NCBI GenBank assembly: GCA_963734115.1
Contig: CAVTFV010000008.1
Coordinates: 211,581-275,580, forward strand
Length of the DNA stretch: 64,000 bases
Direction: 5' to 3'
From: an uncultured Acidobacteriota bacterium
Lineage (GTDB): Bacteria; Actinomycetota; Acidimicrobiia; Spongiisociales; ZC4RG35
The notes beneath the pieces are model-generated. The model ran no database searches. It was not told the origin of the DNA and saw nothing but the letters and a program-made list of their open reading frames with translations. Shown one piece after another: positions 568 to 52,170 of the stretch (the stretch's first letter is position 1; every line of letters begins with the position of its first letter). A program made the position numbers and the translations under genes.

Positions 568-1411
568 TTGCCCGAGCTGCCAGAAGTGGAGATCACCCGG
601 CGTCATCTGGACGATGCGATGGCGGGGCGCCGACTGGTCAGCGTGCGCACCACTCACCCCCGCACGGCCCGCAACAACGCCGGTGGCCCCAAGGAGATCG
701 ACGAGCGGCTCCAGGGGCGGACGGTTCTCGGAGTCGGCCGAAAGGGGAAGTTCCTCGCCGCCCCACTCGATGACGGGCAGACACTCGTCGCCCACCTGGG
801 AATGTCTGGCCGGTTCTCCGATCGGCGACCCTTCCGAGGCCGAGCCTGCGCACACTCATTTCCGGGCGCGGCTGGATGACGGTCTCGAGGTCCGCTTCAT
901 CGACCCTCGCACGTTCGGTTTCGTGGCCGTCGTCACCAGCGATGAGATCGGGGACTCGGGGTTCGCTCGCATTGGGCCCGACGCCTGGGACACAACACCC
1001 TCCGCGGAGGAACTGACGGAGGCACTCGCCAGGAGATCCGCCCCCGTCAAGGCACTCCTTCTCGACCAGGTCATCGTCTCCGGTCTTGGCAACATCTACG
1101 CCGACGAGGCGCTGCACATGTCCGGGATCCACCCGTTGCGGCCCGGCGGTGATCTGACCGAGGCCGAATTGGGCCGGCTGCTGCAAGCCACCCGCAGCGT
1201 TCTCGGCGATGCCATCGACAACGGTGGGACCAGTCTCGATGACCTGGCATATCTGTTGCCCGATGGCCGGGCGGGGGAGAACCTGGACCGACTCCGCGTG
1301 TATGGCCGAACCGACCTGCCGTGCCCCAACTGTGGCACTCCGATCCAGCGCATCGTCATCAGGGCGAGATCGAGCCATTTCTGCCCTGAGTGTCAGCCGG
1401 AGAGGCCTTGA
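568..1411 (+). CDS. fpg: formamidopyrimidine-DNA glycosylase (Fpg/MutM), reading frame broken by a 1-nt indel near 825-835
   Basis: N-terminus MPELPEVE...LVAHLGMSGRF is in the frame of ORF 568..879. The remainder, ...PAHTHFRARLDDGLEVRFIDPRTFGF...CPNCGTPIQRIVIRARSSHFCPECQ (zinc finger), is in the frame of ORF 614..1411. The length 844 nt is 3n+1. Confidence 0.8.
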
Positions 1412-6617: not shown

Positions 6618-7040
6618 TCAGGCAGCGGGCCAGCCCTCGCGATTCTCCTTGCGGACAACGAACCGGAGACCCGACCAGGTCTCGTCGACTGCTACCACCT
6701 TGTTGTCCACCATTCCCGTCGGAAGGAATAGGTCCCGCAGCGTCTGCTCGGTCAGGTCGGTGTCCACGCCCGAGCTCTTCTTGGGCCAGAACACCCAGAT
6801 CGCCCCGTCCGCCGGCAGAGCGGTGATCGCAGTCTGAAACCCGCGTTCGGCCTCATCCGAGCGCTCGGCGAACACGATGAAGACTTCCGCCGGGAAGTCA
6901 CCGCGGTGGACCTGGACATCGGCGGGAAGATCGCCCAGGTCGAGGTCGTAGTAGTTGGGCATGTTGAGGATGCCCACCGTCATCCCCTCTTTGATGCCCA
7001 GCTTCTGGACGAGCGGTGTTCCGCTATATCCCGCCATCAT
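6618..7040 (-). CDS. DUF3052-family conserved actinobacterial protein
   Basis: I placed the start at the internal ATG, giving MAGYSGTPLVQKLGIKEG, the typical family N-terminus. This ATG overlaps the stop of the upstream pirin gene in an ATGA arrangement. Confidence 0.55.
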   Translation of the reverse strand: MMAGYSGTPLVQKLGIKEGMTVGILNMPNYYDLDLGDLPADVQVHRGDFPAEVFIVFAERSDEAERGFQTAITALPADGAIWVFWPKKSSGVDTDLTEQTLRDLFLPTGMVDNKVVAVDETWSGLRFVVRKENREGWPAA

Positions 7041-8059
7041 CCCGCCGGGATCATGTCCCGATGCTCCACCCTTCCGTCGGCATGAATGGCGAACCGCCCT
7101 TCTCTTCGCGGATGGACCGGATCGCGGCGCGACCACGGCCAGCCGCCGAACTGGGTGCGGTGGTAGTCGTCGACAGCCTGCCGCAGCTCCTCGGCCGAGT
7201 TCATGACGAAGGGGCCCAATTGGAAGACGGGAGCGCCGATCGGCTGACCTTGGAGAAGGAGGAAGGCGGCCGGCTCACCGTGGTTCTCGATGATGGTTGA
7301 TATCTCAGGTCGAAGCCTGACCCCGACCTTCTGGCCGAAGCGATCGGCGCCGATGCGCACATCGTCTCCCTGGACGCAGTGGAGCATCCGATTCACCCCG
7401 ACGGGTGCGAGTGGCATCTCCCAGCGGGCGCCGGGCTCGAGGGTGATGTGCCAGATGGCGAGATGTGAGTCGCTCTGCGACCCCCACGAGTCAGGCGGGG
7501 GAGAGGGTGGACGATTGGACCCGATGGTGCCGGCCATGACCTCGACCTCGACACCTGGGGACGGGGAGATCCTCGGGATGTCCTCGCCCCAGAGCATCCC
7601 GAAATACGCCGGGACCATCTTCGACTCGGGCGGAAGGTTCAACCAGATCTGGAACAGCTCCATCGGGTTGGGCCCGTCGGGGTCGAGGAGGGGAAACATC
7701 TCGGCGTGCATGATCCCGCTCCCGGTGGTGAGCCATTGCACGTCACCCTGGCCGTACCGGGCGGTGGCGCCGAGGGAATCGGAGTGGTCGACATATCCAC
7801 GGCGGACCACGGTGACGGTCTCGAACCCACGATGAGGGTGCTGGGGGAATCCGGGCACCACGTCCCCGTGATACATGCTCCAACCGTCGAGATAGGAGAA
7901 GTCGACTCCGATGTCACGCCCGCCGAGCGAAGCGGCCGGGCCGAGGTCGTCGTTTCCTTCCGGGTAGGCATCGAAGTGGTGGACAGTGAAGATGAACGGG
8001 TCGAGACCGGGCCAGGGGAATCCCAGTTCAACGAGTTCGATGACAGATTGTGTCGTGAT
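7037..8059 (-). CDS. pirin-family cupin protein; probable non-AUG (ATC) start
   Basis: HPHRGFETVT...GSGIMHAEM pirin motifs. The conserved N-terminal LDPFIF...HF segment extends 61 codons upstream of the first ATG (7876). An in-frame TAG lies 5 codons upstream of an ATC codon (8059..8057). That ATC is preceded by AAGGAG with 5-nt spacing. Confidence 0.75.
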   Translation of the reverse strand: MTTQSVIELVELGFPWPGLDPFIFTVHHFDAYPEGNDDLGPAASLGGRDIGVDFSYLDGWSMYHGDVVPGFPQHPHRGFETVTVVRRGYVDHSDSLGATARYGQGDVQWLTTGSGIMHAEMFPLLDPDGPNPMELFQIWLNLPPESKMVPAYFGMLWGEDIPRISPSPGVEVEVMAGTIGSNRPPSPPPDSWGSQSDSHLAIWHITLEPGARWEMPLAPVGVNRMLHCVQGDDVRIGADRFGQKVGVRLRPEISTIIENHGEPAAFLLLQGQPIGAPVFQLGPFVMNSAEELRQAVDDYHRTQFGGWPWSRRDPVHPRREGRFAIHADGRVEHRDMIPAG

Positions 8060-8096
8060 GGCGCTCCTTGCCTATTGGGGGAATGCCCAGCGAATG

Positions 8097-8720
8097 TTAT
8101 CGGGGTGGTCGGGTCATCAACCAATAGGTCGGCCCGCCCGGCATCAATTCGATTCCCTGTTGGTCGATCTCGAAACCGGCCCGAAGATAGAAGGGCACCG
8201 CTTTCTCATTCGAGGTCTCCAGATAACACGGGATGCGATCGCGGTCGGCGAGGCCAAGCGCCGGCTCGAGGAGACGGCCCCCAACTCCGAGTCCTTGCGC
8301 TTCGGGGCTGACCCCGATCACCTGGAGGTACCAGACAGACGTTTCAGGAAAATGGGAGTCGATGTTGGATCCGAACTTGATCAGGTCACGGAGCGATCTC
8401 GGTGCATGTCGGAGGACTGAGAACATGGCCGGCAAAGCTCGGAGGTTCCGAACCATCGACCACGGGTAGCGACCCGGCGCCTGCCAGGCAGCGACGCCGA
8501 GCAGGATGGCCCCATCGGTCGCCATCCAACAGTTGCCTTCCGCCTGGCTGTCGCGTACCGGGGCGCGCATGAAGCCGCGCAGAGCGTCCCTGCGTGCGTA
8601 GGGGTCCGGGAACATGTGGGTGTAGTCGGGTGTCGTCTCGAAGCTGCGGGCGAGGAGCTCGGCTGCCTGATCGATCCCGTCTGGCCGGAGCTTTTCGATC
8701 CGGACCGTGTTTCGCTGCAT
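8097..8720 (-). CDS. GNAT-family N-acetyltransferase
   Basis: 207 aa with an acetyl-CoA binding region ([19 protein letters not shown]). Confidence 0.75.
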
Positions 8721-8763
8721 CCCTCAGGTGCTACCCGGACGGGAAGAAGCTCAAACGGTGCGA

Positions 8764-9711
8764 CTATCTGCCCTCCAGCGCCTCGATGAGCTTGGGAAGC
8801 ACTTTGTGCACATCACCCACGACACCGAGGTCGGCGATGGAGAAGATCGGGGCATCTGCGTCCTTGTTGATGGCGATGATGGTCTTGGAGTCCTTCATCC
8901 CGACCAGGTGCTGCATTGCTCCTGAGATCCCACAGGCGATGTAGACGTCGGGTTTGACCGTCTTTCCGGTCTGTCCCACCTGCTTGGCGTAGGGGACCCA
9001 CCCGGCGTCGACGATGGCGCGGGTTGCCCCGGTGGCTGCCTTCAGCTGCTTGCCCAGCTTCTCCACCAGCTCATAGGCCTCCGGCGAGCCGAGCCCACGA
9101 CCTCCGGAGACAATGATCGAGGCGTCACCGAGCTGGGGGCCCTCCCTCTCTTCGACGTGAGACTCGGCGATCTTCGCCTCCGCCGCCCCGGCCTCGGGCA
9201 GCTCCAGCTTCTCGACCTGTGGGGCTCCGCCGCCAATAGCCTCGGCGACGAACGACTTGGGCCGGGCCAGCACGATGTATGGCCCCTGGGATGCACTGGC
9301 AGTGGCGATCTGCGTCCCGCCGAGGATCTCGTGGTCGGTCTCGACCCCTCCACCATTCAGCCGGACGTCGCTGGCATTGGAGAGAACGCCCACCCCAAGC
9401 CTGGCGGCAAGACGCCCGGCGATATCTCGGTCGTTGTACGCCTGGCCGAGGAGGATCAGGTCAGGGGAGTTGGCCGCCACTCGTTCAGCCAGGGCAGCCG
9501 CCACCGGGGCAGCGGGCAATCGATCGCCGCTGTCCACGTGCAGGACCGTCTTCGCTCCGTGGTCGCCGAGCGTCGAGAAGATGGCATCCGAACCGGAGCC
9601 GAGGAAGATGGCGGTGACGTCTCCGAGCTCGCCGGCCTTTGCCAACAGCTCCAGTCCCAATGCCGTGGGCTTCTCGTCTTCCTGCTCGATAAAGACCCAT
9701 ACCGAGGCCAC
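8764..9711 (-). CDS. etfA: electron transfer flavoprotein alpha subunit
   Basis: 315 aa with a C-terminal FAD-binding region ([19 protein letters not shown]). Confidence 0.9.
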
Positions 9712-19731: not shown

Positions 19732-20358
19732 TTACTCCCGGAATCCGAACTCCACCTGGAGTGTTACCGTCACCGATGATGTCCCCGGCTGGATCGGGGT
19801 CGATGCTCTCTCAGGCGCCATGTCGGCAGCCATCATCCTCGGCATCGGCAGCACCGGACCCTGGATCGTCTCAGTTATGGAGGTCGCCTTACCGAGCGTG
19901 TGCCCGGATAGGGCCGCCAGTTGCTCTGCCTTGGCCTTGGCGTCGTTCCAGGCCGCTTCCCGCGCCCTTGCCAGGAGTGACGTCTCGTCGGCGACGCCGA
20001 AGGTGAGGCCGTTGACCCTGGTCTCGTCGCCCCCGGCGGAGGCTATGGAGTCGAGCAGTGGGCCGGTGGTTGCGATGTCACGAAGCTTGGCTCGGACGGT
20101 GTTGCTCACTCGATAACCCAGCAACCGCTGGCTGTTGGTGGAGTAGTCGTACTCGGGGCGGATGGAGTATTCGGTGGTCGCCATGTCGTCGGCGGCAATA
20201 CCACCCGCGGTGAGGGCCGAGGACACAGCCTCCGCCCGTTCCGCTGCAATCCGCGTGGCCTCCTGAACTGTGTCGGAGAGGGCCGAGACACCGACATCTA
20301 ATTCGACGATGTCCGGGGCGGCGCTTGCCTCCCCGGCAGCTGAAACCGCGATACCCAC
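19732..20358 (-). CDS. SIMPL/DUF541-domain protein (no signal peptide)
   Basis: LLGYRVSNTVRAKLRD...AWNDAKAKAEQLA core. It is a paralog of the next gene but lacks the N-terminal roughly 58 aa. Confidence 0.75.
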   Translation of the reverse strand: MGIAVSAAGEASAAPDIVELDVGVSALSDTVQEATRIAAERAEAVSSALTAGGIAADDMATTEYSIRPEYDYSTNSQRLLGYRVSNTVRAKLRDIATTGPLLDSIASAGGDETRVNGLTFGVADETSLLARAREAAWNDAKAKAEQLAALSGHTLGKATSITETIQGPVLPMPRMMAADMAPERASTPIQPGTSSVTVTLQVEFGFRE

Positions 20359-20397
20359 AAACGACCTCCAGATCGCGCCTGCGGTGGAGCCTATCCC

Positions 20398-21177
20398 TCA
20401 GCCGGCGAGGCCGAACTGGACCTGGAGTGTGATGGTCACAGCCGACGTCCCCGGCTCGATCGGGGTCTCGACCGCCCGCTCGGCCGCTGCATCAGCGGCG
20501 TAGGGGATCGGAATCGGAGGCATGCTCACAGTCTCGGTGATCGTGGTTGCCTCGCCCAGCGTCTGCCCGGAGAGCTCGGCGAGCTGGCTGGCCTTGGTCA
20601 TCGCGTCATTCCATGCCGCCTCCCTGGCGGCGGCGACCAATTCGTCGTTGTCCTCGATGCTGAATGAGAGCCCGTTGACTACGACATCGTCCCCACCTGC
20701 GACAGCGGCTGCGTCCAGGACTGCGCCAGTGCTGTCGAGGTCCCGGATCTTCGCTTCGACCGTGTTGCTGACCCGATACCCGATGAGCCGCTGTTCGTTG
20801 CTCGAGTAGTCGTATTCGGGGTATATCGAATAGTCGGTGGTGGTGATGTCCTCTTCGGCGACACCGTTGGAGGTCAGTGAATCGATGAGTGCCTGGGCCT
20901 TCTCAGCCGCCGTGGTGGCTGCCTGGTCGACGGTCTCACCGAGGACCGAGACACCGAGGCCGACCTCGACGGTGTCTGGCGTGCCGGTCACCTCGCCCAT
21001 CCCCGATACCGAGATGCCCGAGGTTGCCTCTTGCGATGTGTTCACCGTGATCTCTTGTGGCGTCGACCCGGCTGCGGTGCCACAGGCGGCGAGAATGACG
21101 GCCAGGCCGCCAATAAGTGCGATGTTGCGAGGGCGTGTGGTCCATGTCATGCCGCTTGGACGAGTGGGCGGCCTCAA
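20398..21177 (-). CDS. SIMPL/DUF541-domain lipoprotein
   Basis: Signal peptide with lipobox (LAVILAACG), then LIGYRVSNTVEAKIRD...AWNDAMTKASQLA. Confidence 0.8.
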   Translation of the reverse strand: MRPPTRPSGMTWTTRPRNIALIGGLAVILAACGTAAGSTPQEITVNTSQEATSGISVSGMGEVTGTPDTVEVGLGVSVLGETVDQAATTAAEKAQALIDSLTSNGVAEEDITTTDYSIYPEYDYSSNEQRLIGYRVSNTVEAKIRDLDSTGAVLDAAAVAGGDDVVVNGLSFSIEDNDELVAAAREAAWNDAMTKASQLAELSGQTLGEATTITETVSMPPIPIPYAADAAAERAVETPIEPGTSAVTITLQVQFGLAG

Positions 21178-21452
21178 CGGTTCCTGGTGCCGACGACCTT
21201 TCCATCTATGACGAGGATGCCCTCAGACTTGAGGAGGTCCGCCTGTCTTTCCTTGCCGGGGGTGCGGATGACTCCGCGGGCGCCGACCACACGCCACCAA
21301 GGGACGTCCCCATCGCAAGTTCGGAGAACCGTGCCCACCGCACGCGCCGCACCAGGGAACCCTGCCTGATCGGCGACCTCGCCATAGGTGACCACCTCGC
21401 CCCGCTCCAGCGAGGTGATGACCTCGAGCACGGCGTCTTCAAAAGCGGTCAC
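21174..21452 (-). CDS. atl: alkyltransferase-like protein (MGMT DNA-binding domain with Trp replacing the catalytic Cys)
   Basis: 92 aa. PWWRVVG occupies the position of the PCHRV motif. Confidence 0.75.
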   Translation of the reverse strand: MTAFEDAVLEVITSLERGEVVTYGEVADQAGFPGAARAVGTVLRTCDGDVPWWRVVGARGVIRTPGKERQADLLKSEGILVIDGKVVGTRNR

Positions 21453-24852: not shown

Positions 24853-25929
24853 TTATTCGTCCTCGGGTCGTTGCTTGTGGACCCTTCCCTCGATCCCGTG
24901 GAGCGAGAGACCGGTGCCATGTCCATAGCGAACCATGGTCATCTCGGCCAGGATGGAGACCGCCACCTCCTGCGGGCTCTCGGCGCCGATATCTAGGCCT
25001 ACCGGGCCCCGCACACGGGCTATGTCCTCCTCCGAGAAACCCATCTCATGCAGTCGCCCGACTCTGAGATCCTGCGTTCGACGGCTCCCCATGCATCCGA
25101 TGTAGCGCACCGGGCTCTTCAGACGCGGCCTCCAGCACCGGGTCTTCGTGGGGCGGGGCATGAGACAGGATGACCACCCATGTACGCCGATCGAGATCGA
25201 CTTGGCCGATGACCCTCTCCGGCCACCCGACCAGGACCCGGGCGGTAGGGAAGCGCTCCGGTGTGGCGAAGGCGCCCCGCGAGTCGATCACCGTCACCCG
25301 GTAGCCCATCTGGCCGGCGAAGTTGGCGAGAGCCTGACCGATATGGACCGCGCCCACGATCAGCATCTCCTGGGGCGGGGCGAGCGACTCGATGAACACC
25401 CCATGGGGTGGGTACTCCATGGCACGGTGCTGCTCATGATCCATGAGCACCAGGGCATCCGCCGTCACATCGGCGGCGATCTCCGATGGGAGCTCCCCGG
25501 ACACCTGCTGACCGGTGGAATCGAGAACCACCTTGGACCCCAATGATGGTCCGTCGACGAAGGTGACGACTGACCCGTACTCCTCGCGATCGAGGATGCC
25601 CTGGACCGCCTCGAGCGGCTTCACCAGGGCTCGATGAAGACGTCGATGGTCCCGCCGCAGGCCATGCCTACTTCGAAGGCGTCGTCGTCGGCGATCCCGT
25701 AGGTGACGGTCTTCGGCTTGCCCGACTCGATCACCTCTTGGGCGTGGAGGAAGACATCGTTCTCGACGCACCCGCCACTGACCGACCCTTCCATGTCTCC
25801 GGCATCCGAGACCAGGAACTTGGAGCCCTCGGGCCTGGGGGCGCTGCCCTGGACCCGGATCACCGTTGCGACGGCGACCTTCTTCCCTTCCGATGCCCAT
25901 CGGTTGCGCACTTCGATCTGATTTCTCAT
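24853..25929 (-). pseudogene. XdhC/CoxI-family accessory protein with two compensating frameshifts
   Basis: N-terminal domain (ORF 25621..25929, ...[12 protein letters not shown]). The middle Rossmann part (VKPLEAV...[29 protein letters not shown]) is in another frame. The C-terminal part ([10 protein letters not shown]...[19 protein letters not shown]) returns to the first frame. The first break maps to a C-run (FIEP-L-VKPLE is restored by adding one C). Confidence 0.7.
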
Positions 25930-27038
25930 CGCCTCGCTCCAGCCACTGAATCGAGCACCCGCACCACCCCCCGGAAGTCACTGACGCTAGCGGCGGGCAA
26001 TAGCCGATCGATGCTCGGCATCACCGCCTGCATGCCACGCGTCAGCGGCTGATATGAGGCCCTCGCCGCGAGGGGGTTGAGCCAGATCACCTGATGGACC
26101 GATCGGGCGAGTCGGGCCATTTCCGACGAGAGGACGGCGGGGTCGCCGCAATCCCAGCCGTCGGAGAGAATCATCACGACCGGGCCGCCCCTGGCCAGAC
26201 GACGGCTCCACCGTCGATTCCACTCGGCGAGAGCGTCACCGATCTGGGTCCCCCCCGACCAGTCGGTCACTCGATCGGCGACGCGGGCCAGTGCGGCCTT
26301 GGTGTCCCGACGGCGCATGTCCTCGGTGATGCGGCTGAGATGGGTGGAGAAGGTGAAGATCTCGACTTCACGCAGCCGACGCTGGGCAGCGTGGGCGAAT
26401 ACGAGGAATATGTCGGCGTACTTCTCCATCGACCCGGAGATGTCGGCGATGATGATGAGGGGGCGCTCCTTCCGCCGGCGCTGCTTCCAGCTCATAGTCA
26501 TCATGTCCCCGGTCGGTCCCACCGCGTCCCGCAGGGTGCGGCGCAGGTCGGGCCTGACCCCATCGCCGGGTGTCCATCGCCGGGTCCTGTAGTCGGTGGG
26601 ATGCCACATCATCGTCATCACCAGGCGTCGCGCCTCCTGGAGGTCCTCGTCATCGAGATCGGCGAAATCCCTGGTTGAGATCCTCTCCACCGCCGAGGCG
26701 CCACCCTGGTCGGTGACCGGCGCCACGCTGGACCCGGCCGAGCCCTGGATCGCATAACTCGACGCGTCGGTGCCCGGCTCATCCGGGTGCCGGTCGACCC
26801 ATGATGGCAGGAGGCGCCCGAAGAAGATCTCGAACTCCCGGTCGAACACCGGGATCTGATCGGGGTCGGTGACGGTCAACGAGCGCAGAGCGGCTTCGGC
26901 CTGCGACCGCCGGCTCATGTCGACCATGGAGAGGGCGCGGGCCATGTCGGTGGTCTGGTCGGAGGTGACCGTGAGACCGCGATTACGCAGGGCCGCTGAG
27001 AAGAGACTCAATTGGTCGATCAGCCCGGGCCGGCTCAT
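25926..27038 (-). CDS. coxE: VWA-domain CoxE-like accessory protein
   Basis: DISGSM MIDAS motif, C-terminal VWA. The start ATG overlaps the coxD stop (ATGA). Confidence 0.85.
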
Positions 27039-33590: not shown

Positions 33591-34427
33591 TCACCAGAGT
33601 GTCGAGCACCGCTTGGAGCTCGGCCACATCCTCTTCCGGGGAGCTGGCGAACGAGGCCGCTTCGACCATGACCGGGGTCCCCTCCACATCGAGGAACCAG
33701 TAATCCACGACCTGACCGGTGCCTGGTAGAAGCGCCCGAATGTGGGTCCTTCCCAGACCGGGACTCTGGTCGCCCAGCGCACCCGGTAGGGATCTCGACC
33801 ACCAGGTGGTAGCCCGTCATGGCCAAAGGCAGTGACCGGTGCCAACGCCTCCCGGATTGTGAATCCAGCGGCGGCGAACTGGTTGGCCAGGGTCCTCCGC
33901 AGTCGATCCCGGCAGCCAGGGGTTCACCACCGCCACACGCCGGCGACCACACCTCGTCGACCTGGACGACCAGGAGCGAGACAAAGTCCTCGCCAAATGC
34001 CTTTCTCGCCCCCGCTGGCATGCGATGACCACCCGCTGTCTTCGATCACGAAAGTGCCTCCGAGCGACGACGCCTCGTCTCCGTCGGTGTCGACGAAGTA
34101 GGCGCCGGGCGCGAGCCCGAATCCATCTCGTCTGGGCTGATCCGGGTCGCATTCGGGGCCGGCTCGGCCACCGGGCGTGTTATCCTTGGTCAGTAAGAAG
34201 ACGAGCCCTGCGATCAGGATCACAGCCGCCGCCGCGATCCCGACCAGGGGGCCACGCCGGCGATTGCGGTCCGCCTGGACCTCAGTCCCGGGTCTGTCAT
34301 CGATTTGCATTTCCGTCCTCCTCTCCAGAGGGGTCGTGAGGACAGGCACATCGACGATCTCGAGCGTGCTCGGGTCCGGGATCGGGTTCACCCGGCGGAC
34401 CATCTCTCGGATCTGGTCGTGCGTCAT
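33591..34427 (-). pseudogene. anti-sigma-like membrane protein, copy 2 (heavily decayed C-terminal domain)
   Basis: MTHDQIREMVRRVNPIPD...TM in the frame of ORF 33924..34988. The C-terminal domain is fragmented across ORFs 33434..34021 and 33591..33845. Confidence 0.55.
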
Positions 34428-34988
34428 GTTCACTCCTTCCTCGGCGATCGGAGGGGAATTCAGTGAACTGATCTCCAGGACGGGCACCAGGGCCCGGGAG
34501 AGCTTTTGATAGGCGCGGTGGATCCGCTGATCGACGGCGGCCCTCGTCATGCCCATCACATCGGCGATCTCTGCCCGGGACAGGCCCTCCCAGACGTCGA
34601 GCATCACGATCTCCCGGTCGACGGGCTTGAGCCGTCGGACCGCGTCCGTCACGACCTTGTCGTCGGCGCGCTGCACGACGACGAGCATCGGGTCGGCGGC
34701 AGGCGCCATCCCGAGGTTGGTGAGCTTGGTGTGGAGACGGCCCCTTCGATAGAAGGCTCGCGATCTGATTCGACAGCGATTTTGCGGGCGATCCCGTAGA
34801 GACAAGGAAGGGTCTTGGGGGCCGGCGGTATCTCGTCGATGCGCCGCCACACGACGAGAAACGTCTCGGCGCAGGCGTCCTCCGCATCGGCCGACGAGGC
34901 GCGCCGCAGGCAATAGGCCAGCACCTGGTGCCGGTGTGCGCGCCAGATCGCCTCGAATCGAGACCTGCTGGTCGGTCTGCGAAGTCAT
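34424..34988 (-). pseudogene. ECF sigma factor, copy 2 (frameshifted; region 4 reads through into the anti-sigma frame)
   Basis: Region 2 is in ORF 34649..34924 (FLVVWRRIDEIPPAPKTL). Region 4 is in ORF 33924..34988 (DREIVMLDVWEGLSRAEIADVMGMTRAAVDQRIHRAY). There is no stop before MTHDQ. Confidence 0.6.
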
Positions 34989-35118
34989 TGCCCCTTAGTG
35001 TCCACCCGTGGTGGATCGCTGACGAGATTCTTGCTCAGATCTCGTGTCATGGGTCGCGGTCACCCGGACACAAACGGGTTGCCGGAACACCGGTCAGGTG
35101 ATCCGGAGGGGAAAGAGA

Positions 35119-35176: not shown

Positions 35177-35588
35177 CTACGAAGGCTCTGACGTATCGGC
35201 CAGGGGGGCGTGGGCCCTGCTCCCTGGGCCGTCCGGCATGTAGCCGATGGCGTCATGCAGACGTGAGCGGCGACGACCGGATGCGGGTACCGCCGGGCCT
35301 CGCTCCGGCACCGTCTCGGGGTCGTAGGTGGCCCCGACCACGATCTTCTCGGCCATCCCATATAGGAGGGGGAGTGCGGCTGCGACGACGCCTCCCGTGC
35401 GGTTCACGTGCTCGAGATTGCCTTCGATCGAAGCGGCGTTGCCGCCGATCTTCTGCACCAGGTCGTTGCACTCCTCGAGATTGGTGGCGATCCGGGTGAG
35501 CTGCCCCCCGACGATCCATAGATAGATCGCCAGCCCGGCGATGAGCAGGACGATGTCGACGACGGTGAAGATGCACCAGGTTGCTCAT
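35177..35588 (-). CDS. small single-pass membrane protein (DUF948-like architecture), 5th of a tandem array; 1-nt frameshift just after the start
   Basis: ATG at 35588 with AAGGTG 6 nt upstream, overlapping the previous stop (ATGA). Removing one base near 35570 gives MSNLVIFTVVDIVLLIAGLAIYLWIVGGQLTRIATNLEECNDLVQKIGGNAASIEGNLEHVNR, continuous with ORF 35177..35458. Confidence 0.5.
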
Positions 35589-37222: not shown

Positions 37223-38173
37223 TCATCCCCTGACTGTCATGTACGCGGAGGGGTCTTTCTCGAAGGCCGCCCGGCATCCCGGGCAGCAGAAGTAATAGGT
37301 CTGACCCTCGTATTCGAACGGGCGACTGCTCTCATCGGCAGGCACGGTCATGCCGCAAACGAGGTCTACGGCGGTGCCTGCGGCTGCGTGCTCATGGCCA
37401 TGACCGGAATGGTGGTGCTCGATGGGCATCGCGTTCGATTCCGCCAGGGGCGCGGGGTCGAAGGCACCCTTGGCCCGAAGCTCCACCAACTCGGCAAGAA
37501 CGGAGACTGCGATTTCGGGATGTGACGTGTGGCCGAGGTCGAGGCCTACGGGGACCCTCACTTGATCCAAGAGGTCACGGGGGACACCCCGTTCGGCGAG
37601 GTAGCCGAGGACCGCCTCGCCACGCTTGGACGAGGCTACGAGCCCCACGAAGGCCGGGCGCGCGTTCACTGCCTGCTCGACCGCCTCCTCGTCACCGTGA
37701 CCCTGAGTGGCGACCACCACGACCGACCAGCTGCCGACATGAGCGGTCTTGAAGTCGGGTACATCGACCAAGTCAGCGCGCCAGCCGACCCCGGCCGCAA
37801 GCTCCACCAGGGTGGCGGCCATTGGGGATCTGCCCACGACCACCAGGTGGGGGCTGGGAAGTACTGGCTCGACATAGAGCTGCAGCGCGCCCTCGGACTG
37901 GCACGACATCTGGACGAACGTCATGCCTTCGGCAACCTCGCCGAACTGGTCGGGGTCGCCGAGCAAGATCAGACGCGGGACCCGTTCTTCGATGGCGCGC
38001 TGCGCCTCCCGAACGACGACCGGCTCGGCACAGGCCCCGCCGATCCAGCCGTGCATCTGGCCGTCGGCAGTGATGATGGCCCGCGACCCTTGCTGCCCTG
38101 AGGAGGGCGCCTGGCGCCAGACCACGGTGGCCAGGGCGAATTCGACGCCCTGGCGGGCGAGATCGCTGGCCAT
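37223..38173 (-). CDS. XdhC/CoxF-family maturation factor fused to a C-terminal YHS (TRASH-like) metal-binding domain
   Basis: XdhC core (VPVGLDLGHTSHPEIAVSVLAE), a His-rich linker (HHHSGHGHEH), then CGMTV...YEGQTYYFCCPGCRAAFEKDP. The start has GGAGG 9 nt upstream. This gene was artificially joined to coxL in the 1183-aa ORF 37223..40774. Confidence 0.8.
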   Translation of the reverse strand: MASDLARQGVEFALATVVWRQAPSSGQQGSRAIITADGQMHGWIGGACAEPVVVREAQRAIEERVPRLILLGDPDQFGEVAEGMTFVQMSCQSEGALQLYVEPVLPSPHLVVVGRSPMAATLVELAAGVGWRADLVDVPDFKTAHVGSWSVVVVATQGHGDEEAVEQAVNARPAFVGLVASSKRGEAVLGYLAERGVPRDLLDQVRVPVGLDLGHTSHPEIAVSVLAELVELRAKGAFDPAPLAESNAMPIEHHHSGHGHEHAAAGTAVDLVCGMTVPADESSRPFEYEGQTYYFCCPGCRAAFEKDPSAYMTVRG

Positions 38174-38208
38174 CTCGATCATCCTCCACCCATCGGCAGG
38201 CTGGGCAC

Positions 38209-40593
<2,385 letters not shown>

Positions 40594-40597
<4 letters not shown>

Positions 40598-41118
40598 CCT
40601 TGATCCTCCAGCTTCTTTGCCGCCCACATGACCGCCTTGACGATGTTCTGGTAGCCGGTGCAGCGGCAGAGATTGCCGCTCAATGCCCATCGGATCTCGT
40701 CCTCGGTCGGGTTCGGGTTCTCCTCGAGCAGGGCCTTGGAGGCCATCATCATCCCGGGAGTGCAGAACCCGCACTGGAGCCCGTGCTCCTCCTTGAACCC
40801 TTCCTGTATGGCGTGCAGCTCACTGGGACCTGCCAGGCCCTCAACGGTCATCACGTCATGCCCGTCGGCTTGGACGGCGAACATCGTGCAGCTCTTCACC
40901 GGCGTGCCGTCGAAGAGCACGGTGCATGCCCCGCAGTTGGAGGTGTCGCAGCCGGTGTGGGTGCCGGTGAGATGGAATCCCTGACGGAGGAGATGGGCGA
41001 GGACGAGACGGGGCTCGACCACGGCTGTTCGGGTCTCGCCGTTGACCGTGACTGTGATCTGCCTCGTCGGCGTCTCCGCGGCCGCCCCCGGGCTGACCTC
41101 TTGGAACAGGCTGGTCAT
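40594..41118 (-). CDS. coxS: CO dehydrogenase small [2Fe-2S] subunit CoxS
   Basis: 174 aa with both cysteine clusters ([11 protein letters not shown] and [10 protein letters not shown]...CRCTGY). Confidence 0.95.
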
Positions 41119-41119
41119 G

Positions 41120-41995
41120 TCAGGCCGCCTCCTCTTCCGATCGAATCAACCCGGTCAGGATCCTGCTGGTGAAGACGCTGACCAGCTGCTTCTTGTAGGA
41201 GGCGCTGCCTCGATGATCGGTCCGGGGTTGGGCTGCCTGCGCCGCCAGCGAGGCGGCCTCACCGATCACATCGGCTGTGAGCGAACTGCCAACCAGCACC
41301 TGGGCGGCATCATCGGCTGAGATGGTCGAAGGACCCACTCCGGTCAGGCCAATGCCCGCCCTGGTGACCTCACGGCCGTTTCGGTCGACGGAAACGGCGA
41401 CCCCGACCGTGGCGAAATCGCCCACGCGGCGCTCCAACTTCAGATAGCCGCCAGCCGGCTCGCCCTGGGGGGCGGGAGCGATCGCCTCCACCACCACCTC
41501 GTCGTAGGCGAGGTTTGTCTGGAACGGGCCGCGGACGAGCTCCTTGACCGGGATTGTCCGCCGGCCACCTTGACCCTGTGCCACAACCGAGGCATCCAAC
41601 GAGACCATCACCGATGCCCAGTCTCCCTGTGGGTCGGCGTGACACAGGGAACCGACCAGAGTGCCGCGATTTCGCACGATCGGGTCGGCGACGAGTGGCG
41701 CCGCCGCAGCCATGGTGGGCTGATGGCCGGCCAGCAACGAAGAGCGCTCCAGGTCGGCGTGACGGCACAGCGCCCCGACGTGGATCGATCCGTCGGCATC
41801 GATCCGGTGATAGTCCAAACCGGCAATCTCGTTGATGTCGACCAGCATCTCCGGGGAAGCGAACCGGAGCTTGATCATCGGGACCAGGCTCTGGCCTCCG
41901 GCCAGCACCTTGGCATCGCCACCCCCGTCGGCCAGGAGCGCGGAAGCTTCCTCGATCGACCTGGGAGCCTCGTAGCGAAATCGAGAGGGGTAGAT
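41120..41995 (-). CDS. coxM: CO dehydrogenase medium FAD-binding subunit CoxM; probable ATC initiation codon
   Basis: FAD-binding motifs ([28 protein letters not shown]). The N-terminus (I)[20 protein letters not shown] aligns to M-I-P-G-S-F-D-Y... of characterised CoxM, so the ATC at 41995..41993 sits at the initiator position. AAGGAGG lies 5 nt upstream. There is no in-frame ATG/GTG/TTG for 75 codons upstream. Confidence 0.85.
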
Positions 41996-42015
41996 GTCTG
42001 CCTCCTTGGTTTGCT

Positions 42016-46890: not shown

Positions 46891-47144
46891 TCTTGGCCAA
46901 AGGCGAGATCGTCGAGCGAGTGGTGACCTATGTGGTCAAGAGCATCGTGGAAGAGCCCGACGAGGTCTCCGTGACGATGGTCGAGCAAGGGCCCGACGAG
47001 GTGGTGGCCGAGGTCCGCACCGCCAAGGGCGACATGGGCCGTGTCATCGGGCGCCGGGGCCGGGTGGCCAAGGCGATCCGTGCTGCCGCGGGTGCGGCCG
47101 GGGACGAAGAGGGCATCAACGCTGGCGTCGAGTTCCTCGACTGA
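46887..47144 (+). CDS. KH-domain RNA-binding protein (YlqC/UPF0109 family)
   Basis: 85 aa with the [20 protein letters not shown] motif, in the conserved position between rpsP and rimM. Confidence 0.8.
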
Positions 47145-47160
47145 TCCCGAGCGATTCGTC

Positions 47161-47640
47161 ATCGGGAGGCTTGGACGGCCTCACGGGCTCGATGGCTATC
47201 TAGGGATCTACGTCGACGAAGAGGACACGGTCAGCCTCCAACCCGGTTCGACCGTCTATCTGGAGGACCGTCCGCATGTGGTGCGGGCGGTTCGTCGCGC
47301 CGACCGTGGTTTCCAGGTGGCATTCGAGGGGGTCGGCAGTAGGGAGGCCGCGGAGGAGATCAGGGGTTCCGTGGTTTCGGTCGATGAGCGCCGGCCGCTA
47401 GGGGATGGTGAGTTCTGGCCCGAGGACCTGATCGGGCTGAGCGTTTTCGAAGAGTCGGGTGCGCCGGTCGGAGTCGTCGAGCAGGTCGTCTTCGGGCCCG
47501 GGCAGGATCGTTTGGTGATCACCACCAACGATGGGGCCAGGTTCGAGGTCCCATTCGTCGACGAGTTGGTCCCGGTGGTCGACCTGGGCGCCCGACGAGT
47601 CGAGATCAACTCGATCCCAGGGTTGATCGAGCCGGGCTGA
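47161..47640 (+). CDS. rimM: 16S rRNA processing protein RimM (start codon unresolved)
   Basis: FVIGRLGRPHGLDGYLGIYV...PRC-barrel C-terminus. No ATG/GTG/TTG lies in frame between the KH gene stop (47144) and the conserved VIGRLG motif. The annotated start is the first in-frame ATC. The true start could be an indel-masked codon near 47145-47160. Confidence 0.7.
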   Translation: MGRLGRPHGLDGYLGIYVDEEDTVSLQPGSTVYLEDRPHVVRAVRRADRGFQVAFEGVGSREAAEEIRGSVVSVDERRPLGDGEFWPEDLIGLSVFEESGAPVGVVEQVVFGPGQDRLVITTNDGARFEVPFVDELVPVVDLGARRVEINSIPGLIEPG

Positions 47641-51193: not shown

Positions 51194-51538
51194 ATGAACG
51201 ATCTTCACGTAGTTGAGAGCGCGCACGTCCGCGACGATATCCCCGATTTCCGGTCCGGCGACACCGTAAAGGTGCACGTCCGGGTGGTCGAAGGCGGCAG
51301 AGAGCGCGTCCAGATATTCGAGGGACTTGTTATCGCCCGGAACGGGGCAGGGGCACGGGCCTCCTTCACCGTCCGCAAGTTGAGCTTCGGGGTGGGCGTC
51401 GAGCGGGTTTTCCCGGTTCACGCCCCGATCCTCTCCAAGATCGAGGTCGTCCGACGTGGTGACGTCCGTCGCTCCAAGCTGTACTACCTGCGCGATCGGG
51501 TCGGGAAATCGGCCCGCATCAAGGAGCTTCGCGACTGA
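51194..51538 (+). CDS. rplS: 50S ribosomal protein L19
   Basis: 114 aa. AGGAG lies 7 nt upstream of the ATG. Confidence 0.95.
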
Positions 51539-51615
51539 TCTCGCACGACACAGGCCCCATCGACGAGGAGACGGTCCCGCAGACGCCGCCACGTCGGCGT
51601 TCATTCCTCGCCGAG

Positions 51616-52170
51616 TTGCCCGGATTGCTGTTGACGGCACTGGCCATCGCGGTCGTCATCAAGACATTCTTGATCCAGCCGTTCTGGATCCCGTCGGAGT
51701 CGATGCTCCCCACTATCGAGGTCAACGACCGGGTAATGGTCAACAAGCTGGCATATCAGTGGGGTGAGCCACAGCGTGGTGACATCGTTGTATTCCGCGA
51801 TCCCCGCGAGGAGGAGATCGAAGAGTCCATCCCCGAAGCGGTTATTCGCTCTGTCCTCGAGGCGGTCGGCATTCGCACTCGGGGTCATGAGGACCTGATC
51901 AAACGGGTCGTCGGCCTGCCGGGAGAGACCATCGAAGTCACGAACAACCGGGTCGTTGTCGACGGGACTCCGCTCGATGAGCCCTACTTGCCCGACGTCT
52001 TCATGCCAGACGAGCCGGCTGTCACCGTCGGGGCCGACGAGGTGTTCCTCATGGGAGACAACCGCGATGCGTCCTTCGACAGCAGGCGCTTCGGCCCGAT
52101 ACCGCTCGAAGACCTCATCGGGAGGGCCTTCGTGACCATTTGGCCCGTCTCACACATCGGCGGCCTTTAG
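51616..52170 (+). CDS. lepB: signal peptidase I (LepB); N-terminus may extend upstream to about 51538
   Basis: Catalytic IPSESMLPT (Ser) and KRVVGLPGE (Lys) boxes. The annotated TTG start omits the in-frame RRRSFLAELPG positive n-region. That region has no canonical start upstream except the ATC overlapping the rplS stop (TGATC). Confidence 0.85.
   Translation: MPGLLLTALAIAVVIKTFLIQPFWIPSESMLPTIEVNDRVMVNKLAYQWGEPQRGDIVVFRDPREEEIEESIPEAVIRSVLEAVGIRTRGHEDLIKRVVGLPGETIEVTNNRVVVDGTPLDEPYLPDVFMPDEPAVTVGADEVFLMGDNRDASFDSRRFGPIPLEDLIGRAFVTIWPVSHIGGL

Follow-up and report, generated by a model that had tools for sequence, protein, structure and literature searches.

The question raised by this locus is at which codon the ribosome begins to translate a gene whose conserved N-terminal segment lies upstream of its first canonical initiation codon. 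The gene encodes a pirin-family protein (a YhaK-like bicupin) and is found on the minus strand of a 64,000-nucleotide stretch of DNA, hereafter the window, from an uncultured bacterium of the Acidimicrobiia (contig CAVTFV010000008.1 of assembly GCA_963734115.1). Comparison with related loci points to an AUC at 8059-8057 as the codon from which the gene is translated, a reading to which a probability of about 0.85 can be given. The relevant features are the following:

7037..8059, minus strand: pirin-family (YhaK-like bicupin) coding sequence, 340 codons plus TGA (stop at 7037-7039)
8057..8059, minus strand: ATC, putative pirin initiation codon, in frame and aligned with the M/V start of 340-residue homologs
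8064..8069, minus strand: Shine-Dalgarno (SD) sequence AAGGAG, 4 nt (CGCC) 5' of the ATC
8072..8074, minus strand: in-frame TAG closing the pirin frame, with 4 sense codons between it and the ATC
7874..7876, minus strand: ATG at codon 62, the first canonical start, judged not to be the real one

The start region of the pirin gene

Read on the minus strand, the sequence runs TAG, GCA AGG AGC GCC, ATC ACG ACA CAA TCT GTC ATC GAA CTC GTT GAA CTG GGA TTC CCC TGG. As the original prediction had stated, the TAG (8074-8072) closes the frame shortly 5' of the ATC, no ATG, GTG or TTG lies between it and the ATG at 7876 (an interval counted here as 65 sense codons), and the conserved segment ELVELGFPWPGLDPFIFTVHH...HPHRGFE is encoded 5' of that ATG. 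The near-cognate codons of interest in the same interval are only the ATCs at 8059, 8041, 7993 and 7912 and the CTG at 8026. The AAGGAG was likewise found where it had been placed (8069-8064), with a spacer of 4 nt (CGCC) instead of the 5 nt that had been claimed. Its duplex with the anti-SD sequence has a calculated energy of -8.2 kcal/mol, which ranks 15th among 38 starts in the window.

The motif AAGGAG-N4-6-ATC occurs six times in the window, against 1.46 occurrences expected. This enrichment was dropped as evidence and proves little, because four of the six occurrences are gene-internal coding sites for Lys-Glu...Ile. What does go beyond chance is the position of the SD-ATC motif at an N-terminus defined by homology, together with its retention in orthologs.

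The start codon in related loci

Thousands of pirin-family proteins were retrieved by a database search, the nearest of them from metagenome-assembled genomes of Acidimicrobiia. In many homologs of 340 residues the initial M or V coincides exactly with the window ATC (e.g., MTAQSILELVELGFPW, VTTEPILELVELGFPW). Among the nearest relatives some are truncated calls (MELVALGFPW, MGFPWPGL) and others are extended calls with Ile at the ATC position (..GDLITTQSV, MRKERHISAQPV, ..KENRIPTQSV), in which K-E often directly precedes the Ile and corresponds to the translated SD. This is exactly the pattern to be expected from gene callers that accept canonical starts only, if the whole group had no such start.

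The DNA of the orthologs was collected from species-representative genomes and metagenomes (loci numbered with the prefix L) and the codon aligned with 8059 was read in each. This codon is ATC in 12 loci (L001, L002, L003, L081, L082, L083, L084, L085, L086, L088, L098 and L181), ATT in L087, and ATG in L112 and in the more distant L004, L005, L006, L018, L090 and L107. Every ATC or ATT locus has AAGGAG, CAGGAG, TAGGAG or GGAGGAG 4-6 nt upstream. These loci belong to unrelated assemblies, being mostly contigs from other metagenome projects, and the synonymous sites near the codon vary among them.

It might be supposed that an ATG was turned into the pirin ATC by a mistake in base calling or assembly, the more so as this long-read assembly has apparent indel errors that frameshift two genes of the window, fpg and coxL. 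This explanation can practically be discarded, because ATC or ATT recurs at 13 other pirin loci from unrelated assemblies in spite of the synonymous differences around it; moreover, the ATC of a second gene, coxM, is also repeated in seven related loci (see below).

In a neighbour-joining tree of 43 loci, from which L088, L098 and L181 were left out, the ATC/ATT loci group together in a single clade, to which an ATG locus (L090) is sister. The ATG of L112, which is nested within the clade, represents a single reversion. The change from ATG to ATC would thus have taken place a single time, at the root of this clade of Acidimicrobiia, and would have been kept across a synonymous divergence of more than 1.

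Coding constraint and the pirin protein

If translation begins at the ATC, the sequence after it should evolve as a coding sequence. A comparison of 13 clade members shows 26/11/51 variable sites at positions 1/2/3 of codons 2-62, a pattern that reads as the signature of translated and constrained sequence. Conversely, the 60 nt upstream of the start can be aligned among clade members only with indels of 1, 2, 5 and 11 nt, which indicates that they are non-coding. The ratio of nonsynonymous to synonymous divergence (dN/dS) was calculated by the Nei-Gojobori method for the window against each of 11 clade members. It amounts to 0.05-0.13 for the gene as a whole and to 0.02-0.18 for the 60 codons 5' of the first ATG, which are under strong purifying selection; dS ranges from 0.6 for the closest relatives to more than 1 for the deepest. 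The length from the ATH (H standing for A, C or T) or ATG position to the stop is exactly 340 codons in all 12 full-length genes.

From the point of view of the protein, the domains Pirin (PF02678; E=3.1e-24, 85.5 bits, cutoff 26.1) and Pirin_C (PF05726; E=1.3e-20, 74.1 bits, cutoff 27) are present in this order, Pirin being N-terminal, and the matches of known structure include YhaK (7te5, 6.7e-36) and human pirin (1j1l, 7.2e-34). In an alignment of 40 homologs, H74 and H76 (in HPHRGFE) and H118 and E120 (in IMHAEMF) are invariant; from what is known of pirin structures (His-x-His ... His-x-Glu) we take these residues to be the metal ligands. In the same alignment the residues upstream of the HPH, counted from the ATC, are highly conserved, and L12, P15, W16, G18, D20, P21, F22, T25, V26, H27 and H28 are invariant. 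An AlphaFold2 model of the 340-residue protein built from this alignment was not used, as its mean pLDDT (predicted local distance difference test) of 49.7 was too poor to judge the fold and the N-terminal domain was not resolved.

In the solved pirins (YhaK 7te5 and human 1j1l) about 45-60 residues precede the HxH metal site. A start at the window ATC would give about 70, while a start at the ATG at 7876 would leave 8 residues before GFPQHPHRGFE. For this reason pirin translation must begin between the TAG and about codon 8, an interval in which the ATC at 8059 is the sole conserved candidate preceded by an SD.

These observations also bear on the idea that the gene is a decaying pseudogene, or that it yields only an N-terminally truncated protein from the ATG at 7876, which is after all its first canonical start and the one that a gene caller would be expected to choose. 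Such a product would lose about 50 residues that precede the metal site in the solved pirins, and decay is at odds with the low dN/dS of the whole gene and of the 60 codons before that ATG at a dS reaching beyond 1, with the conserved length of the reading frame and with the 11 invariant residues between L12 and H28. Taken together, they make this explanation very improbable.

Two further genes: coxM and lepB

The gene for the medium subunit of CO dehydrogenase, coxM, shows the same pattern as the pirin gene, an SD followed by an ATC start:

41120-41995, minus strand: coxM (CO dehydrogenase medium subunit) coding sequence
41993..41995, minus strand: ATC, putative coxM initiation codon, indicated by the starts of homologs and by ATC in related loci
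42001..42007, minus strand: coxM SD AAGGAGG, 5 nt upstream of the ATC

The start reads AAGGAGG CAGAC ATC TAC CCC TCT CGA TTT CGC TAC GAG, and its SD has a duplex energy of -11.2 kcal/mol (rank 6 of 38). The original prediction had given pirin and coxM the same geometry; they are similar only, the coxM spacer being 6 nt after AAGGAG (or 5 after AAGGAGG) and that of pirin 4. In a comparison of 121 sequences (the window's own and 120 database clusters), the N-terminus of 95 coincides exactly with the ATC at 41995, nine have Ile at this position and 17 are truncated calls, all of them in the window's clade. At the DNA level, ATC is found in the coxM loci of L161 (a syntenic relative), L162-164 and L177-180, after an SD of the form AAGGAGG, GAGGAGG or GAGAGGAG. 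Immediately 5' of the ATC the window and L161 differ by a 1-nt indel, which indicates that this region is non-coding. In the coxM tree, non-canonical states are spread over at least three separate groups.

The third gene is lepB, on the plus strand downstream of rplS:

51535..51576, plus strand: 5' region of lepB with near-cognate codons only, namely CTG 51535, ATC 51538 (in TGATC, overlapping the rplS stop), ATC 51559 and GTC 51574
51616..51618, plus strand: TTG, first canonical codon in the lepB frame, inside the membrane anchor; CTG in L161 and not conserved

From the rplS stop (TGA 51536-51538) up to the TTG at 51616, ATG, GTG and TTG are missing from every frame, in the window as well as in L161. 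The region encoding PPRRRSFLAEL differs from that of L161 almost only by synonymous changes, from which it follows that it is translated. Judged by these comparisons, lepB does lack a canonical start and is a genuine third case, as had been predicted. The accompanying claim, that the RRRSF motif can be reached only from the ATC of TGATC, did not stand: CTG 51535, ATC 51559 and GTC 51574 also reach it, so that the ATC at 51538 is one of several possible starts. It stays a candidate because the changes downstream of it are biased towards third positions (5 of 9), and it is conserved in four lineages that have no canonical lepB start; CTG 51535 and GTC 51574 likewise remain in play. Homology favours ATC 51559 as the candidate start. 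Most lepB homologs begin with (M/V)EEE(L/Q)(V/A)PE.PEEPRRRSF, and the canonical start of relatives stands at the position of this codon: the GTG of L165/167 lies 20 nt past the rplS stop, exactly where the window has ATC 51559. The same position holds ATC in L161 and L169/170 and GTC in L172-176. No clear SD was found for ATC 51559. The codon of L172-L176, GTC, is the rare start that has been shown experimentally for sigR of Streptomyces.

The original prediction had also proposed that AUC initiation is real and recurrent in this organism, arguing from the types of error to be expected in the assembly. The comparative data back this more strongly than that argument does: the codon recurs in 13 other pirin loci and in the coxM loci, purifying selection follows the pirin ATC and non-coding sequence precedes it, and lepB has no canonical start in several lineages.

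Comparison with known non-canonical starts

Starts of this kind are known from a number of bacteria. The gene infC starts with ATT in E. coli, ATC in Streptomyces and ATA in Deinococcus/Thermus, in connection with the autoregulation of its product, initiation factor 3 (IF3) (PMC5472188; PMC2830850). In Streptomyces, the GTC start of sigR is repressed by IF3 (Feeney et al., 2017, PMC5472188), and its role, shown experimentally, is to keep the sigma factor below its anti-sigma factor (PMC5472188). In Deinococcus, an ATC start of dnaA was demonstrated by N-terminal proteomics with TMPP-labelled peptides, and rpsL of this organism starts with CTG (Baudet et al., 2010, PMC2830850). The AUU start of E. 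coli pcnB is associated with attenuated expression (10.1101/063800), and the ATT start of ebpA in Enterococcus faecalis is reported to be so as well (PMC4447247). In E. coli reporters AUC initiates with Met at about 1-2% of the level of AUG (10.1101/063800).

The genes of the window resemble infC in having an AUH codon at a start defined by homology, with a ribosome-binding site upstream, kept in relatives and routinely mis-annotated; unlike infC, the pirin bicupin, CoxM and LepB are not translation factors and have no evident feedback logic. As in the case of Deinococcus dnaA, an ATC lies on a conserved gene other than infC, is common to related species and, when re-annotated, restores a conserved N-terminus; furthermore, several genes of one lineage are affected in both. 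The difference is that the dnaA start is proven by peptides, whereas the case from this uncultured member of the Acidimicrobiia is comparative only. Streptomyces belongs to the same phylum, and the non-canonical start of sigR limits the output of a gene related to redox stress; its codon, GTC, is also that of the lepB position in L172-176. The pirin gene differs from sigR in having ATC instead of GTC, and no equivalent partner logic is known for it. Rare AUH starts are also shared with pcnB and ebpA, which are reported to use theirs to hold expression low; those are single-gene cases from other phyla, for which no clade-wide recurrence over several genes is reported.

In common with the known class, pirin and coxM have no canonical codon at or upstream of the N-terminus and have their ribosome-binding site at a suitable distance (4-6 nt in the orthologs). 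For pirin, in addition, the codon is kept in orthologs and coding constraint begins directly after it. The pirin, coxM and lepB starts would therefore be additions, from a poorly studied bacterial class, to the AUH/GTC-start class already known, and they reveal no new mechanism.

A possible mechanism for the pirin start

The anticodon of the initiator fMet-tRNA is CAU. The 30S subunit would be positioned by the AAGGAG, 4 nt upstream of the AUC, which the initiator tRNA would read with a mismatch at the third position, so that the protein would still begin with Met (MTTQSVIELVELGFPW...); the predicted N-terminus counted from the ATC is (M)TTQSVIELVELGFPWPGLDPF... As a near-cognate start proofread by IF3, the codon may initiate weakly and respond to the level of IF3. 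Decoding by the initiator tRNA, low efficiency and IF3 dependence are thus extended to pirin by analogy with infC, pcnB, sigR and the dnaA of Deinococcus.

The output concerned may be that of two genes, since the pirin stop overlaps the start of the gene downstream:

7037..7042, minus strand: stop/start overlap GGATGATGG of the pirin and DUF3052 genes, the pirin TGA overlapping the downstream ATG

This TGATG overlap is kept in nine loci of the clade and is absent from the deeper L084, L086 and L087. In the window subclade the two genes are predicted to form a translationally coupled pair and, because of the overlap, the weak pirin start probably sets the output of the two-gene unit, which may be held low or raised conditionally. 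A scan of the whole window against Rfam gave zero matches, so that no leader or riboswitch accounts for the pirin start, and a search of 7950-8350 for sigma-70 consensus promoters and terminators found nothing.

Arguments against the AUC start and alternative codons

Several points weigh against the AUC reading. The spacing of 4 nt between AAGGAG and ATC is short with respect to most SD-led genes of the window (5-9 nt). An unusually strong SD that would compensate for a weak codon has modest support only, since the SDs of coxM and pirin are clear without being exceptionally strong (6th and 15th of 38). In two loci of the clade, L003 and L083, the SD includes an in-frame GTG, two codons before the start, and L082 and L084/085 carry in-frame ATGs far upstream, so other starts are possible in those lineages. 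Finally, the support for the start is of a comparative kind, and IF3 dependence and low expression are extrapolated from infC, sigR and dnaA of other organisms.

Some of these points can be read as favouring a start at another nearby non-canonical codon (AGG 8068, ACG 8056, ATC 8041 or CTG 8026), or at an upstream canonical codon in some lineages, the Ile at 8059 then being internal. ACG 8056, for instance, sits 7 nt after the SD, a more typical spacing. In the clade, however, this second codon is not conserved (ACG in the window; GCG, GCA, TCA or TCG elsewhere), whereas the ATH is, and what is conserved is the distance between SD and ATH. The GTG that some members have at codon 6 corresponds to GTC or ATC in the window subclade. 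As regards the upstream codons, the GTG within the SD of L003 and L083 is absent from the other loci, the window and L086 have in-frame stops upstream of the ATC with no canonical codon between, and the upstream indels break the frame. Moreover, the upstream ATGs of L082 and L084 fall inside a TAnnnT hexamer resembling a -10 element, which is conserved across the clade about 17-30 nt upstream of the pirin start (TAATAT, TAGCAT, TACCAT; TAACAT in the window), which suggests that these ATGs belong to the promoter rather than to the mRNA. On this evidence a start at another codon is improbable, and the AUC at 8059-8057 is retained as the start of the pirin gene.

8094..8099, minus strand: TAACAT, putative -10 element proposed by comparison, overlapping the stop of the upstream GNAT gene

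The ancestral TAGCAT is interrupted by an insertion of 11 nt in the window subclade, where it is replaced by a new TAACAT/TAATAT lying over the GNAT stop. Further upstream, the close relative L181 has a glyoxalase-family gene (8828-9247) between etfA and the GNAT gene; it is absent from the window, where 43 nt separate the two (8720-8764).

Frequency of non-canonical starts in the window

The remaining genes of the window were checked with Pfam and NCBIfam profile coordinates and by stop-to-stop alignment of open reading frames (ORFs) with the syntenic L161, L162 and L181. All of them have conserved canonical starts, with rimM being ambiguous. A control is offered by fpg, the start of which is known exactly from the catalytic Pro2: it is a TTG (568-570) after GGAG and 6 nt.

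The gene rimM, for which no canonical start is conserved, was considered as a fourth case and rejected as ambiguous: a GTG at 47092 is present in the window and L162 and not in L161, the N-termini of homologs (MRKGSQLESSSSTD..., MSSSTD...) align the start with an ACG at 47104, and the region overlaps the upstream KH-domain gene, which makes conservation uninformative. At this junction (47092-47163, plus strand) the difference between ACG and ATG at 47104 is a synonymous GAC/GAT change in the KH-domain gene, the domain of RimM begins at an ATC at 47161 (ATA in L161, ATC in L162), and gene callers have shortened the protein to 137 (L161) and 142 (L162) residues.

Three of about 55 genes, near 5%, therefore have non-canonical starts, whereas ATG, GTG and TTG account for 99.95% of starts in annotated model genomes (10.1101/063800). 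Even if such starts were tenfold under-annotated, three in one window would be expected about 4 times in 1000 by a simple binomial, a figure that has to be read with the fact that this single window was flagged for this very feature. The excess over the roughly 0.05% annotated in model bacteria, together with the independent recurrence of ATG-to-ATC changes at coxM, leads to the tentative proposal, less probable than not, that the lineage uses AUC (with AUU, AUA, GUC and CUG) as a regular start at the percent level. If this were true, it would imply one of two things: that proofreading of the start codon has been relaxed by changes in IF3, the initiator tRNA or the 16S P-site, or that a considerable number of genes have their output adjusted by way of IF3. 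No tRNA was found by a scan of the window, a tblastn search of 936 kb of fetched DNA with the E. coli IF3 gave no infC match, and no report on start-codon usage in Acidimicrobiia was found in the literature beyond an anti-SD survey.

The same figures allow a doubtful but serious alternative concerning why these codons are there and not where translation begins, namely that the ATC starts are a tolerated, near-neutral degradation of ATG in a lineage with poor start discrimination. In agreement with it, three of about 55 genes in one window have no canonical start, the coxM ATC arose in at least three separate groups of the tree, the functions of pirin, coxM and lepB are unrelated, and the third base of the pirin start, which is C in 10, T in 1 and G in 1 of the 12 tree members, behaves approximately like that of any other codon. 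Against it, a single G in 12 is rarer than a neutral, GC-rich third position would predict, which gives a hint that ATG is disfavoured at the pirin start, and the sample is one window.

Other genes of the window

Several genes are split across frames in a way that fits the indel errors of a long-read assembly. The N- and C-terminal halves of fpg (about 700-900, plus strand) are in different frames; the C-terminus of coxL is in the ORF 38212-38676 (minus strand), while the ORF 37226-40819 continues into the xdhC frame, with the break at about 38200-38700; xdhC/coxI fragments (24853-25977, minus strand) and a sigma factor gene (33927-34994, minus strand) are also affected. No frame break is near the three non-canonical starts.

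Two SIMPL (DUF541) ORFs lie head to tail in the same frame at 19735-21222 (minus strand), with one stop (20398-20400) between them; no signal peptide is obvious in the second, which reaches its first canonical start 13 codons in. The pair could result from a tandem duplication, from a base error creating the stop, or from readthrough. A small membrane-protein gene at 35180-35584 (minus strand) does not have the MNNLV start of L161 and L162: a stop directly precedes IFTVVDIVLLIAG and the first canonical codon is 42 codons in, possibly owing to another indel or base difference in the window.

Implications for the lineage

An immediate consequence is that the public protein sets of this abundant lineage would contain systematically wrong N-termini. 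A standard gene caller would cut 61 residues from the window pirin; the calls for its close relatives are 6-11 residues too short or run on through the translated SD, those for lepB miss the positively charged n-region, and coxM is truncated in 17 of 121 sequences, every one of them from the window's clade. Were the single-gene reading alone true, the pirin start would be a modest extension of the precedent set by infC and dnaA. Clade-wide AUC starts, maintained over long times on three unrelated genes, would be more than has been documented for most bacteria; they hint that the lineage uses such starts unusually often, and would provide a concrete lineage in which to ask whether the stringency of start-codon selection itself evolves.

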